The notes under the pieces: generated by a model
Told to the model about the DNA's origin: nothing
Seen by the model: only the letters and a program-made list of their open reading frames with translations
The model's database searches: none
Part shown: one piece after another, positions 1 through 22,239 of the stretch
How the letters are laid out: each line of letters starts with the position of its first letter
Position numbering within the stretch: the stretch's first letter is position 1
DNA from: Shigella phage fPSFA
Sequence record: OR670332
Reading direction: 5' to 3' (one strand)
DNA length: 23,788 bases
Made by a program: the position numbers and the translations under genes

Positions 1-1143
1 GCGGCGCTGGAGTCGGACGCTAATGTGGTGTGCACTAACTACGAAGTTATCGAGTGGCTGATTGACTACTACGGCAAAGATGACTGGCCTTTTACGGTTA
101 TAGTTGCCGATGAAAGTACGAAGCTTAAATCATTCCGTAGCCGTTCGGGCGGGAGCAAACGGGCAAGGGCGCTTAGTAAGGTGGCATTTGGAAAGGTTAA
201 GCGTTTCATCAACCTGACCGGTACACCGTCACCTAACGGCCTAAAAGACTTATGGGGCCAGAACTGGTTTATCGATGCTGGCGAGCGCCTGGGGTCTTCG
301 TACACAGCATTCACTGACCGCTGGTTTAACTCGGTACAGAAAGGGAAGTCAGCTATGGCACGGGAGTACCACGCCCGCCCCGGCGCGGATAACGAGATTC
401 ACCAGAAGATGAAGGATATCAGCCTTACCATTGATGCCGCCGAGTGGTTCGGTTGTGAAGCGCCTGTTATTGTACCGGTTGAGATTGACCTGCCGAAGAA
501 AGCGCGTCAAGCCTACATCGATATGGAGGAGAAGTTATTCGCGGAACTGGAGAGCGGAGAAGTTGAAGCGGCTAACGCCGCCGCTAAAACGGCTAAGTGC
601 TTGCAGATTGCTTCCGGTGCCGTGTATGTGTCAGGGCCGGATGGTGAAGCAACGAAAGACTGGGAGAAAGTGCACGACGCGAAACTCGATGCGTTAGAGT
701 CCATTGTCGAGGAGTTGCAGGGTGCGCCGCTGCTGGTGGCCTATCAGTTCAAGCACGAACTTGAGCGCATTCTTAGGCGATTCCCCCAGGCGCAGGCGTT
801 TGCGAAAGGTGCTAAGGGTAATAAGCAGATGGAATCTTGGAACCGCGGGGAAATCGAGATTTTGTGCGTGCACCCTGCATCGGCGGGCCATGGTTTGAAT
901 TTACAGGACGGCGGGCATCATCTGGCGTTTATTTCGCAAGGCTGGAACCTGGAGCACTATTTGCAGGTTGTCGAGCGTATAGGTCCTGTACGCCAGAAAC
1001 AGGCTGGCCACGAGCGTCCAGTGTTCCTGTATCACATAGTCGCTAAAGACACGCTGGATGAGGTCGTTGCCGCGCGTACGGACGAGAAAAAATCTGTCCA
1101 GGAAGAGTTGCTTAATTATATGAAGAGACGAGGTAAGAGATGA
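1..1143 (+). CDS. SNF2-family helicase/ATPase, C-terminal part (5' end lies outside window)
   Basis: Reading frame is open to window position 1. Motifs VIVADESTK (motif II-like), INLTGTP (motif III), and SAGHGLNLQ...GWNLEHYLQVVERIGP...TLDEVV (SNF2-type C-terminal helicase motifs). Confidence 0.7.
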   Translation, partial: AALESDANVVCTNYEVIEWLIDYYGKDDWPFTVIVADESTKLKSFRSRSGGSKRARALSKVAFGKVKRFINLTGTPSPNGLKDLWGQNWFIDAGERLGSSYTAFTDRWFNSVQKGKSAMAREYHARPGADNEIHQKMKDISLTIDAAEWFGCEAPVIVPVEIDLPKKARQAYIDMEEKLFAELESGEVEAANAAAKTAKCLQIASGAVYVSGPDGEATKDWEKVHDAKLDALESIVEELQGAPLLVAYQFKHELERILRRFPQAQAFAKGAKGNKQMESWNRGEIEILCVHPASAGHGLNLQDGGHHLAFISQGWNLEHYLQVVERIGPVRQKQAGHERPVFLYHIVAKDTLDEVVAARTDEKKSVQEELLNYMKRRGKR

Positions 1144-1301
1144 ACATCATAGCCCCGATTCCGGCATTGCAAAAACGTATTAAGGAACTAGAGGAGGAGG
1201 CTCTACGACTACGTCAGCAAAGAGACGCCGCTAATGCGCAACTTGACTTTATTATGGAGAATCTGAAATGCGATACACTACCGGAGCAAAATGCTTCATA
1301 G
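1140..1301 (+). CDS. small hypothetical protein (53 aa, coiled-coil-like), translationally coupled to helicase
   Basis: ATG at 1140 overlaps the helicase stop (ATGA), GAGG sits 6 nt upstream, and the ORF was translated by hand to TAG at 1299-1301 (MNIIAPIPALQKRIKELEEEALRLRQQRDAANAQLDFIMENLKCDTLPEQNAS). It is below the ORF-track size cut-off. Confidence 0.35.
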   Translation: MNIIAPIPALQKRIKELEEEALRLRQQRDAANAQLDFIMENLKCDTLPEQNAS

Positions 1302-1359
1302 CAGGACTTATTATTGCCGGTGTTTTTACTATGTACGCTTTGTACAGCGTAATTTGAAG

Positions 1360-20379: not shown

Positions 20380-22239
20380 CTATTCCTCTTTCAGATAATC
20401 GGCAACACGCTTATCGAGTTCCGCCATCTCTTTAAGAGTTAACGGACGCCCGAATCCGTCTACCGATATTACACGAAATTCTTCCGGGGTTATCCCACTA
20501 TTACGAAAAATCTTACCCCGAACAGGGCCGAGGGCTTCGTCCTGAAACCACGCCGGTTGCTGCTTGAGGAATTCGTAGTAGGTCGTGTCGGCGCTTACCT
20601 GCTGACCTCCATCTGCACCCCTGGCCGCCCGTTTCGCGCCCTTATCAAGGAAGTCAAATTCGGAACTAATTACCGGAGCGGTTGTTGAGCGACAGTTATG
20701 TGCTATAATTCCATTTGCAAGATACCAGTTCTGTTCATTTTCGAGGTTATAAACATGCCCGCAAAAATCAGCTTCACTAAAGACCAAATCGACAACATCA
20801 TCAAGCTCTACACCGACGGCGTCGGACCAGTTGAAATCGGAAAGATTATCGGCGTTTCGTGTAGCCCAGTCATACGCGTTCTCAGAGAGAACGGCGTTAC
20901 TATTCGCGGAGGCAGCGACGCTATGTTTATCAGAATGGCTAAAGCTACCCCCGAGGAGCGCCTCGCGCTCTCCGCCGCAGCGCATGAAGCCGCCCGAGGG
21001 AGAAAGGCCGACCATGCCGAACTGCTTCGCAGGGCCAAAGCCAGGGAGGGGGGCATCAACGCTGGCAGCCACTGGGAGTTCCTTGTCAACGATTTGCTTA
21101 TTCAGTCTGGACTTGACTTTATCCCAGGAAAGGCTGTCGACAAGTACAATCTCGACTTCGCCGTCGGTTCCGTCGCCGTGGAAGTCTTCGGGGGAGGTTG
21201 GGCTTGTACTGACCGCCGCCGGATTGGCCGCTACATTAGCCGCACTAAACAAATCGGAGAACTTGGCTACAACGTTGTGTTCCTTATGCTTGAGAGAGAG
21301 CGTAGCGTCCTTAGCGCACACGAGCTTGTCACCTACATTGAGAAGGCCAGAAGCAACCCAACCACTGGTAGTCAATACTTGGTGATTTGGGGTGATAGAC
21401 AAGGTGCGACCGGACTTTGTAGAGACATAGACTATAGTGCCTTTGTACGCCCTTTTAAAAATGTTAGAAACAGGGCTACCGGTAGATACTACAGTGTCCC
21501 CAAGTAAACAATTAGGATGGGCCGGCGGCAGCGGCCCTTTTCCTATTTCGTACTGCATAGAATCGCGCGACCGGCAAACAGCCGAAGTACGGGAATCAAG
21601 GGTAGATACCCACTCATATTTCGTGATGATATCGTCGTTCTGAGCGTAAACCTGTTGCCGTGCTTCGTTGGATACGTGCGCCAGCGCTGTCCGGATAACG
21701 GTTGCAGCGTTACGCTCGGAGATATCGGCCAGACCACCGGGCCCAACAACGTTCTTAACTATCTGCCGCGTGGTCATACCCTGTACGAACCCAGACTTAA
21801 CCCCCATCACCAGGCGATTCACCTCGGTTTGCCGCCAGCCATTCATTAGCGAAACAAAATCAACCGGTTTTTCGCTTAGTTCAAGTGGCGCGAAAGTCGC
21901 AGCGGCCCACACCTGCTCCGCAGCCGGTGTTACAAAGTTAGCATTAACGTTGGTCGACAATGTTTTTACATTCCAGTTAACCTCATAGTCGGAAAGCTCA
22001 CGGGCGTCGGCCAGTAGCTTCTCATACCACCCGGACGTAATTCCGTTCAGTGCTTGCTCAAGTTCCCGCAGCATGATGGTGAGTCTCGCTGCCGTTCTGC
22101 TGTCATCGCCAAACAGCAGCACCTGTCGCTTAACCTCATCACGCATTTGCGAGATAAATGGTGCCAGGTCTTTTACTTCGCTACTGGCGTTACGTTGCAG
22201 CAATATCTGGTGGCTGATAATCGATTCTAAAAGACTCAT
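20380..22239 (-). CDS. head morphogenesis protein (SPP1 gp7 / Mu F-like), intein-containing precursor
   Basis: N-extein ends ...TLDSRTSAVCRSRDSMQYEIGKGPLPPAHPN and the C-extein begins CRSTT, which restores the family's HPNC-type motif after excision of 272 aa. AGGAGG RBS upstream. Confidence 0.75.
   Translation of the reverse strand: MSLLESIISHQILLQRNASSEVKDLAPFISQMRDEVKRQVLLFGDDSRTAARLTIMLRELEQALNGITSGWYEKLLADARELSDYEVNWNVKTLSTNVNANFVTPAAEQVWAAATFAPLELSEKPVDFVSLMNGWRQTEVNRLVMGVKSGFVQGMTTRQIVKNVVGPGGLADISERNAATVIRTALAHVSNEARQQVYAQNDDIITKYEWVSTLDSRTSAVCRSRDSMQYEIGKGPLPPAHPNCLLGDTVVSTGSPVSNIFKRAYKGTIVYVSTKSGRTLSITPNHQVLTTSGWVASGLLNVGDKLVCAKDATLSLKHKEHNVVAKFSDLFSAANVAANPAAVSTSPTSPEDFHGDGTDGEVEIVLVDSLSWDKVKSRLNKQIVDKELPVAASVDAPLPGFGPAKQFGMVGLSPSGGFMRCGGEREALLGGSFSHSDKHSVAASANSNAVLSENAYDWATRNADNLSDFNWSDAVGVELDDVVDLVFSEADFCGHVYNLENEQNWYLANGIIAHNCRSTTAPVISSEFDFLDKGAKRAARGADGGQQVSADTTYYEFLKQQPAWFQDEALGPVRGKIFRNSGITPEEFRVISVDGFGRPLTLKEMAELDKRVADYLKEE
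20682..20709 (+). promoter_or_regulatory. putative extended -10 promoter for the antisense intein-nested gene
   Basis: TGcTATAAT at 20701-20709, with TTGTTG at 20682-20687 and a 16-nt spacer. Confidence 0.45.
20695..21510 (-). mobile_element. intein (Hint domain) inserted in the head morphogenesis protein
   Basis: Block A CLLGDTVV at the N-terminus, block B SITPNHQVLT, and C-terminal blocks VYNLENEQNWYLANGIIAHN followed by a +1 Cys. In frame with the host gene. Confidence 0.75.
20755..21507 (+). CDS. HTH + DUF559/Vsr-like (PD-(D/E)xK fold) endonuclease-like protein, encoded antisense within the intein
   Basis: ATG at 20755 with GAGG 8 nt upstream. N-terminal HTH (DQIDNIIKLYTDGVGPVEIGKIIGVSCSPVIRVLRENGV). 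DUF559-like core YNLDFAVGSVAVEVFGGGW...TDRRRIGRY...LGYNVVFL. Translation verified by hand. Confidence 0.65.
   Translation: MPAKISFTKDQIDNIIKLYTDGVGPVEIGKIIGVSCSPVIRVLRENGVTIRGGSDAMFIRMAKATPEERLALSAAAHEAARGRKADHAELLRRAKAREGGINAGSHWEFLVNDLLIQSGLDFIPGKAVDKYNLDFAVGSVAVEVFGGGWACTDRRRIGRYISRTKQIGELGYNVVFLMLERERSVLSAHELVTYIEKARSNPTTGSQYLVIWGDRQGATGLCRDIDYSAFVRPFKNVRNRATGRYYSVPK

Follow-up and report, generated by a model that had tools for sequence, protein, structure and literature searches.

Selection divided between two strands in an intein of a phage Mu F-like head gene with an antisense Vsr-like endonuclease gene

In canonical bifunctional inteins, such as PI-SceI, the Hint domain is split between blocks B and F by an in-frame endonuclease domain. 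Inteins with antisense LAGLIDADG open reading frames (ORFs), such as that of Synechocystis DnaX, have also been described (Gorbalenya 1998 and Gogarten 2002, as cited in bioRxiv 10.1101/2025.01.02.630785), and a recent preprint reports inteins with anti-sense VSR-like homing endonucleases (HENs) in actinobacteriophages, in which the sense frame is unstructured and HHpred gives a match to 3R3P (Gosselin, Arsenault & Gogarten, bioRxiv 10.1101/2025.01.02.630785). The accessible text of this preprint, whose survey covers PhagesDB only, names minor capsid proteins among the hosts of inteins with non-canonical HENs, without stating the HEN type for each host, and does not contain the terms "promoter," "ribosome binding," "synonymous," "Salmonella," or "Proteobacteria." In the fractured genes described by Dassa et al. 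(2009, PMC2677866), free-standing Vsr-like endonuclease genes lie between the halves of split inteins; the terms "antisense," "complementary strand," and "reverse strand" do not occur in that paper, where "opposite" concerns charges. The EDxHD prototype, I-Bth0305I, is encoded by a group I intron in a phage gene, on the same strand as its host and with its start codon 88 nucleotides (nt) from the intron start (Taylor et al. 2011, PMC3239194; PDB 3r3p). Here, we analyze an intein that interrupts a Mu F-like head morphogenesis gene in a stretch of 23,788 nt from Shigella phage fPSFA (record OR670332), referred to below as the window, and that carries a 250-codon ORF on its opposite strand. We consider it highly probable that this is an intein with an antisense homing endonuclease, in which selection is split by frame and which appears to form a self-contained mobile cassette.

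In DNA searches, the window falls among the Jersey-like Salmonella phages (Guernseyvirinae); it is Jerseyvirus-type Salmonella siphophage DNA, with the intein seated at the conserved PPxHxN/CR(S/C) motif of the Mu F gene. The host protein matches PF04233 (E value of 3e-8, 34.8 bits, cut-off of 29.6) and phrog_241 (E value of 2e-143), and portal and Hoc-like genes are annotated beside its gene in relatives, which is the synteny of the Mu F / SPP1 gp7 family. PF14890, the intein splicing domain, is found on the same protein above its curated cut-off (E value of 7e-10, 39.3 bits versus 35.8) and is the sole Pfam match on the intein, which has no in-frame endonuclease domain. The splicing blocks read Cys1 ... 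TPNH (block B) ... GHVYNLE (block F) ... GIIAHN (block G), followed by Cys+1. Residues T40, N42, and H43 (TPNH being intein residues 40-43), H271, N272, and Cys+1 are invariant in the family alignment, and the class-1 hallmark residues are invariant in the 80 inteins with mapped boundaries, the window included. Phage records matching the host gene by DNA number 347, only 57 of which cover more than 80% of the gene. The four intein-less alleles retrieved are exactly 816 nt shorter (1044 versus 1860 nt) and carry the uninterrupted motif ...PPAHPN-CRS(S/T)TAP..., so that the intein is a sporadically distributed insertion; the target junction in the Shelanagig and Jersey alleles is ...CATCCTAAC/TGTCGG... 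(the slash marks the insertion point). The intact blocks and the occurrence of the gene in viable isolated phages suggest that splicing is active.

The antisense ORF and the host frame are aligned codon by codon, since the plus-strand codons begin at coordinates ≡1 mod 3 (20755) and the lowest coordinates of the minus-strand host codons are likewise ≡1 mod 3 (22237); plus residue p faces host residue 496-p. An earlier note on this DNA had claimed this shared register, together with the avoidance by the plus gene of TTA, CTA, and TCA, and both claims are borne out: the three codons are missing from its 18 Leu codons (TTG 2, CTT 10, CTC 5, CTG 1) and 15 Ser codons (TCT 1, TCC 2, TCG 1, AGT 3, AGC 8) and equally from host codons 246-495, with 21 Leu and 30 Ser. 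Across the 20 other genes of the window, TTA and CTA account for 26% of Leu codons and TCA for 16% of Ser codons, a usage from which total avoidance would arise by chance with P≈3e-4 in the plus gene and 7e-6 on the host side. The run of codons open in the aligned antisense frame extends over 272 codons here, versus a longest run of 40-131 in each of the 20 other genes. As the same note had observed, the TAA of the plus gene (21505-21507) is the complement of a TTA Leu codon adjoining the first intein residue, Cys244; the Leu is residue 245 of the host protein and residue 2 of the intein. The plus ATG is the complement of the CAT encoding His495 in block F.

Two compositional features ascribed to the locus hold in part. 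Codons ending in C are indeed most frequent in the plus gene (42%, versus 20-40% elsewhere in the window), but the hint of foreign origin seen in this enrichment did not survive, as the G+C content of its third codon positions (0.58) is ordinary for the window (0.45-0.64) and C occupies 42% of third positions in both frames of the linker, the segment between the splicing regions. Since GNC is self-complementary, a frame with G-rich first positions imposes C-rich third positions on its partner, which makes the enrichment a poor sign of foreign origin; we therefore dropped this argument, and horizontal origin rests instead on the discordance between intein and exteins described below. The sense-frame linker, which had been called low complexity, is compositionally biased rather than truly of low complexity: Ala, Ser, Gly, Asp, Val, and Asn make up 58% of it, versus 38 to 42% of the exteins, and the reduction in mean 12-mer entropy is modest (2.76 versus ~3.0).

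The frame under selection was resolved by zone with two sets of sequences, namely, (i) 12 intein-bearing Guernseyvirinae alleles, for which the ratio of nonsynonymous to synonymous substitution (dN/dS, ω) was estimated by the Nei-Gojobori method, and (ii) 53 non-redundant family members with ≤90% nt identity. Among the 12 alleles, variation in the exteins peaks at host third positions, which are plus first positions (91-223 variable sites, versus 23-105 at host first and 15-69 at second positions), and that in the linker peaks at host first, i.e., plus third, positions (102 variable sites, versus 22 at second and 51 at host third positions). Accordingly placed are the ω values: 0.01-0.19 in the host frame of the exteins, with the plus frame there above 1 in most pairs (0.77-7.3), versus 0.7-1.9 in the host frame and 0.08-0.34 in the plus frame of the linker (host residues 316-489). 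In blocks F/G (host residues 490-515), host-frame ω is 0-0.03 and plus-frame ω is not computable, plus-frame dS being 0, while in blocks A/B (host residues 244-295) both frames lie below 0.5; a sliding window places the switches of constraint near host residues 256-327 and 472-495. The 53 members give the same picture at greater distance. Within intein residues 65-240, the plus frame is the better conserved in 151 of 174 columns (mean identity, 0.37 versus 0.23), and within residues 67-226 in 136 of 158; the sense frame is the better conserved in residues 1-64 (0.43 versus 0.33) and 253-272 (0.55 versus 0.32). The last ~50 residues of the plus ORF face blocks A and B, where, for example, VIWG mirrors TPNH, and constraint is interleaved there, with (R/T)ATGRY of the endonuclease tail better conserved than the intein loop that it faces (0.43 versus 0.25). 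The 5' leader, start, tail, and stop of the plus ORF are composed of splicing-block codons.

The earlier note had read the linker as an antisense shadow of the nested gene, and this reading is supported for intein residues ~65-240: dN/dS favors the plus frame there, conservation of linker residues without that of the plus protein is the reverse of what the columns show, and the expected lack of structure agrees with an AlphaFold2 (AF2) model, built from only 10 sequences, in which the sense-frame intein has a mean predicted local distance difference test score (pLDDT) of 40.3, with residues 67-226 below 50 and residues 22-66 at 56-72. The reading does not extend to the segments opposite blocks A/B and F/G, where the relation is mixed or reversed. 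Selection thus acts on the endonuclease frame over the central ~175 codons and on the intein frame at the two ends, and the linker is a passive mirror image, compositionally biased and without confidently predicted structure, that need only avoid TTA, CTA, and TCA.

The product of the plus gene consists of a helix-turn-helix (HTH) region and a Vsr-like endonuclease of the I-Bth0305I/"EDxHD" type. With the single plus protein, Pfam gave no match, PHROGs gave weak "DNA binding" matches only, and phmmer against the PDB found nothing significant; identification required a profile built from homologues. AF2 models the protein with a pLDDT of 86.6 and a confident Vsr fold, so that both the Vsr-type nuclease fold of the I-Bth0305I family and a separate N-terminal DNA-binding module are present. 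The catalytic acidic residues E108, D134, and E143 are retained in 52, 53, and 53 of the 53 members, respectively, D134 aligning with the D196A position of 3r3p, and in 44 of the 53 the core reads VAVE(V/I)(F/W)GG(G/H)WH, the final His of which aligns with the general base H213 of I-Bth0305I. Fold, acidic residues, domain architecture, and the mobility signature described below are consistent with an active Vsr-like endonuclease. Intein lengths in the family cluster at ~270-280, 316-334, and 367-370 residues, and at least the first two classes go with the presence of one or of two HTH repeats at the N terminus of the antisense protein, so the length of the linker appears to be set by the domain count of the endonuclease.

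The arrangement is conserved far beyond the Jersey-like phages. A tblastn search with the plus protein matched 98 phage records (65 Salmonella and 2 Escherichia); outside the Jersey, Kaguna, and Cornell phages, identity is 43% in Vibrio phage 1.197.A, 35-37% in Gordonia phages, 32% in Aaphi23 / S1249, and 27-30% in Mycobacterium, Klebsiella, Idiomarinaceae, and Acinetobacter phages, and a scan of IMG/VR added 239 loci; such DNA-level locus searches were far more informative than word-indexed protein searches, which gave 17 and 16 matches. Nearly all of the listed tblastn matches lie under head, minor-capsid, capsid-maturation, or hypothetical-protein genes. Annotation was examined in four records, in each of which the match lies on the strand opposite a gene annotated as MuF-like or intein-containing; in the three distant ones among them, register and insertion site are identical to those of the window, and the matches in Gordonia phages Angelicage, Vivi2, Fosterous, and Affeca (E value of ~1e-17) are antisense to MuF-like genes, with register and site unchanged. 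Of 83 distant loci, taken from Vibrio, Gordonia, Aaphi23, and IMG/VR sequences, 82 have a minus-strand frame of 288-1054 residues open across the match in this register. Among the inteins whose boundaries could be mapped (80), the Mu F junctions PPxHxN/C(L)xGD ... (I)(I/L)(T)HN/CR(S/C) are shared, and stops in the antisense frame are confined to approximately the first 16 and the last 13 codons.

Two loci of this collection deserve separate mention. In the sole exception among the distant loci (IMG/VR 3300028214_000030, 573-2160), the Mu F/intein and endonuclease frames are both broken at ~1231-1285, which could mean that the copy is decaying through a frameshift, that the sequence contains an error, or that the intein is in effect split. 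In a Logan contig (SRR23815405, 2501-3790), an RtcB gene harbors an intein of the same type and, antisense to it in codon alignment, a Vsr-like endonuclease ORF; the junctions are ...EAIN/CFPGDTDV and GIIAHN/CHHNY, and the RtcB gene is split into two ORFs of 183 and 429 residues. This locus suggests that the element has exchanged one extein, Mu F or RtcB, for the other.

Candidate expression signals of the plus gene lie within the codons of the splicing blocks. The putative extended -10 element TGcTATAAT is kept in 9 of 12 close relatives. In block G, the codon of residue -4 ends in TA, yielding antisense TAnnnT, in 39 of the 53 members (9.7 expected), 16 of which have a perfect TATAAT, and the codon of residue -3 ends in CA, giving antisense TGn, in 19 of 43 (9.1 expected), where the expected counts derive from the extein codon usage of each sequence itself. 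Most family members have TCGAGG, TGGAGG, or TCAAGG at the Shine-Dalgarno position, and most of the 53 an ATG at antisense codon 20 or 21; the ATG at antisense-intein codon 20, which is the start in the window, is conserved together with the Shine-Dalgarno sequence. At the other end, Leu occupies intein residue 2 in 41 members, 40 of which encode it by TTA or CTA, and the endonuclease stop falls at intein residue 2 in 39 of 53. Nothing obvious in the sense frame accounts for these biases, which suggest a cassette independent of extein sequence, since the proposed promoter, the Shine-Dalgarno sequence with its ATG, and the stop would all be contained within the intein. An upstream in-frame ATG (20698) was dropped as a start, being located 5' of the conserved -10 element and not itself conserved. 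A terminator-like hairpin with a T-run (21519-21537, plus strand), 12 nt past the stop, consists of N-extein codons for GPLPPA, is disrupted in relatives, and is probably fortuitous.

The intein and the exteins have different histories. Between the window and Escherichia phage Snoke, the exteins are 71.6% identical and the inteins 95.7%; the corresponding values are 73.2% and 96.9% for the window and phage dunkel, and 76.3% and 100% for UPWr_S1 and dunkel. In the last pair, there are 0 mismatches over the 816 intein positions, and mismatches resume in the flanks 19 nt upstream and 24 nt downstream. Shelanagig, the closest extein relative of the window (96.2%), is without the intein. The occurrence of identical inteins in 76%-identical exteins suggests recent homing with short co-conversion tracts. 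Silent changes are found beside the insertion point, where the intein-less alleles examined read AAC/TGTCGGTCAAGC or AAC/TGCCGAAGT and most intein-bearing alleles AAT/TGTCGCTCAACA, and the Shelanagig and Jersey alleles have an additional Ser-for-Thr change; such flank differences could be co-conversion tracts or cleavage-resistant target variants. The coordinates of all features are collected in Table 1.

Table 1. Features of the intein-bearing Mu F locus and its antisense gene (positions within the window)
Feature	Position	Strand	Remarks
Host gene, Mu F-like head morphogenesis (minor capsid) precursor, 619 aa	20380..22239	minus	PF04233, phrog_241; intein-interrupted
N-extein, aa 1-243, ends ...PPAHPN	21511..22239	minus	host-frame ω 0.05-0.09
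Class-1 intein, 272 aa, host aa 244-515 (Cys244 to Asn515), then Cys516 (+1)	20695..21510	minus	
Intein N-terminal splicing region, residues 1-66, blocks A and B	21313..21510	minus	intein frame mostly dominant, plus-conserved patches interleaved
Intein linker, residues 67-226, host aa 310-469	20833..21312	minus	from ω, pLDDT, column conservation
Intein C-terminal splicing region, residues 227-272, blocks F and G	20695..20832	minus	from host-frame ω, sense identity
C-extein, aa 516-619 and stop, starts CRSTTAPV	20380..20694	minus	
Extein flanks of the intein with allele differences	20662-20694 and 21511-21540		
Putative extended -10 promoter element TGcTATAAT	20701..20709	plus	antisense of block G Ile-Ile-Ala codons (putative)
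Shine-Dalgarno sequence GAGG, 8 nt 5' of ATG	20743..20746	plus	antisense of block F Asn-Leu codons
Antisense endonuclease gene, 250 aa	20755..21507	plus	N-terminal resolvase/Tc3-type HTH, Vsr-like core, C-terminal beta tail
HTH DNA-binding region, aa 1 to ~100	20755..21054	plus	
Vsr-like PD-(D/E)xK-type nuclease core, aa ~105-200	21067..21354	plus	
E108	21076-21078	plus	
D134	21154-21156	plus	
E143	21181-21183	plus	
WACTDRRR, aa 149-156	21199-21222	plus	clade variant of active-site stretch
C-terminal tail, aa 201-250 and TAA	21355..21507	plus	lies opposite intein blocks A and B; predicted beta strands (pLDDT 76-92)

We propose that the endonuclease would be transcribed antisense to the late structural operon from the extended -10 element in the block G antisense, translated from GAGG-N8-ATG in the block F antisense, and terminated at the antisense of intein Leu2; that the enzyme would cut intein-less Mu F alleles of co-infecting phages, with repair copying the intein together with ~20 nt of flank; and that protein splicing would remove the intein and its junk linker from the head protein, an excision that would make the insertion nearly neutral for the phage. 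Several points weigh against this interpretation: (i) expression and activity are deduced from sequences and models; (ii) a simple sigma-70 promoter scan detected no plus-strand promoter, missing the -10 element because the -35 region is poor; (iii) the codon-bias statistics treat the 53 sequences as independent, which they are not fully; (iv) pairwise ω is biased in overlapping frames, because the synonymous sites of one are nonsynonymous in the other, a bias for which the contrast between zones of the same gene served as the control; (v) the low intein pLDDT is weaker evidence than it looks, given the few sequences behind the model; and (vi) at the H213-aligned site, the window clade has Ala or Ser (Ala150 in the window), and a second His, common in the family (41 of 53), is Arg in this clade, so that catalysis must differ or be impaired.

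The last of these points gives some room to the idea that the ORF encodes a once-active endonuclease, now dead or domesticated as a DNA-binding regulator or nickase, and that the element spread by ordinary phage recombination, the more so as phage genomes are mosaics whose modules are exchanged without endonucleases. We regard this as improbable: the plus frame is under purifying selection, the three acidic residues are invariant or nearly so, the clade keeps a conserved motif of its own, W[AS]x[ST]D..R, in place of the two His residues, the codon choices behind stop, start, and -10 element are maintained, and the blocks of identity end 19-24 nt outside the intein, as predicted for site-specific homing and unlike random recombination. 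Still more improbable is dual coding throughout, with the sense-frame linker as an unrecognized in-frame domain. blastp aligns the sense frames end to end, and DFHGD...EV.IV is conserved in them from Salmonella to Gordonia phages, but DFHGD, the only strongly conserved linker motif, mirrors the catalytic VAVEV exactly and was for this reason dropped as an intein motif; moreover, sense-frame ω in the linker is ~1 or higher, most columns are better conserved in the plus frame, the sense-frame pLDDT stays below 50, Pfam recognizes only the splicing domain, and the steps in linker length match gain or loss of HTH repeats in the plus protein. As to the idea that the ORF is no gene but open by chance or through the codon usage of the host gene, it is true that codon-aligned antisense frames are those most often open by chance and that the ORF is unannotated in the inspected records of the phage collection; the data nevertheless refute this explanation, through the length of the open run, with a probability of about 1e-5 when set against the 20 other genes, the homologues at down to 27% identity in which the ORF is still open, the confident Vsr fold model, and the purifying selection on the plus frame.

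An intein with an antisense homing endonuclease being the reading that we prefer, a further step can be taken more tentatively, at slightly less than even chances: the two genes may form an old, apparently obligate antisense pair, in which all endonuclease signals are synonymous choices in the splicing blocks and ~50 codons doubly encode structured parts, i.e., N-terminal strands of Hint and the beta tail of the endonuclease. If so, this would be a fully self-contained mobile cassette, coding in both directions, that has persisted in phages of Actinobacteria as well as Proteobacteria, that has jumped at least once to RtcB, and that in the window clade works with a re-modeled Vsr site lacking the canonical general-base His.

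The antisense ORF is not annotated in the ~15 deposited records whose feature tables were inspected, and gene callers pick it up only on fragments with a truncated host gene. Some records and papers do already annotate the Jersey-type intein. The record of vB_StyS-sam, in which the 250-residue ORF is likewise not annotated, has two overlapping "hypothetical protein" ORFs within the intein (754-1002, minus strand, and 930-1331, plus strand) that are short, lie on the minus strand or in another plus frame, and are not the endonuclease. A real conserved gene is therefore missing from the inspected records. For phage therapy genomics, where Jersey-like phages are widely isolated as Salmonella biocontrol agents, the element marks recent gene flow among Jerseyvirus, Kagunavirus, and Cornellvirus phages. 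A long antisense overlap in which constraint changes direction within a single stretch of DNA offers a benchmark for methods that detect overlapping genes and selection on them. That a clade of a seemingly mobile element has lost the general-base His suggests a variant mechanism of the Vsr type.

Compared with I-Bth0305I, the plus protein shares the order of an N-terminal HTH-type region and a C-terminal Vsr-like nuclease, the acidic residues (its D196 being D134 here), and residence in a self-splicing element of a phage gene. It differs in that the general-base His213 is Ala150, so that, with Ala or Ser across the clade, it departs from the strict "EDxHD" motif at one residue, and in that its HTH repeats are of the resolvase/HTH_7 type and not the annotated NUMOD type. 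Inteins of the PI-SceI type likewise have endonuclease-coding DNA between blocks B and F and spread by homing, but here the in-frame translation of that DNA is junk. With the split inteins of Dassa et al., the present element has in common a Vsr-like endonuclease that is tied to an intein without in-frame fusion, in an element with expression signals of its own, putative ones in the present case; there, however, the endonuclease is a separate gene between the halves, whereas here it is nested antisense in an intein that remains in one piece, since neither reading direction of the overlap contains a stop. The locus lends support to the idea that endonucleases and splicing domains come together while remaining separate genes, and it shows that the pair can be kept together without fusion. 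As described, the antisense LAGLIDADG inteins also carry the endonuclease on the strand opposite the intein, with a different fold.

The closest counterparts are the actinobacteriophage inteins with anti-sense VSR-like HENs, with which the window element shares a full intein, a Vsr-like endonuclease antisense between the splicing blocks, a sense frame without recognizable structure, and the 3R3P/EDxHD match; unlike these, it resides in a Jerseyvirus of Salmonella (Gammaproteobacteria). The Gordonia homologues in Angelicage and Vivi2 belong to the same sequence family as the window element, a homology judged from the Gordonia loci found here. Since inteins of this kind are reported there, the element belongs to a recently described kind and is not a new class. 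Our results go beyond the preprint in (i) resolving selection by frame, (ii) establishing the conservation of register and site over more than 80 loci, (iii) locating candidate expression signals in the splicing blocks, and (iv) revealing a variant active site.

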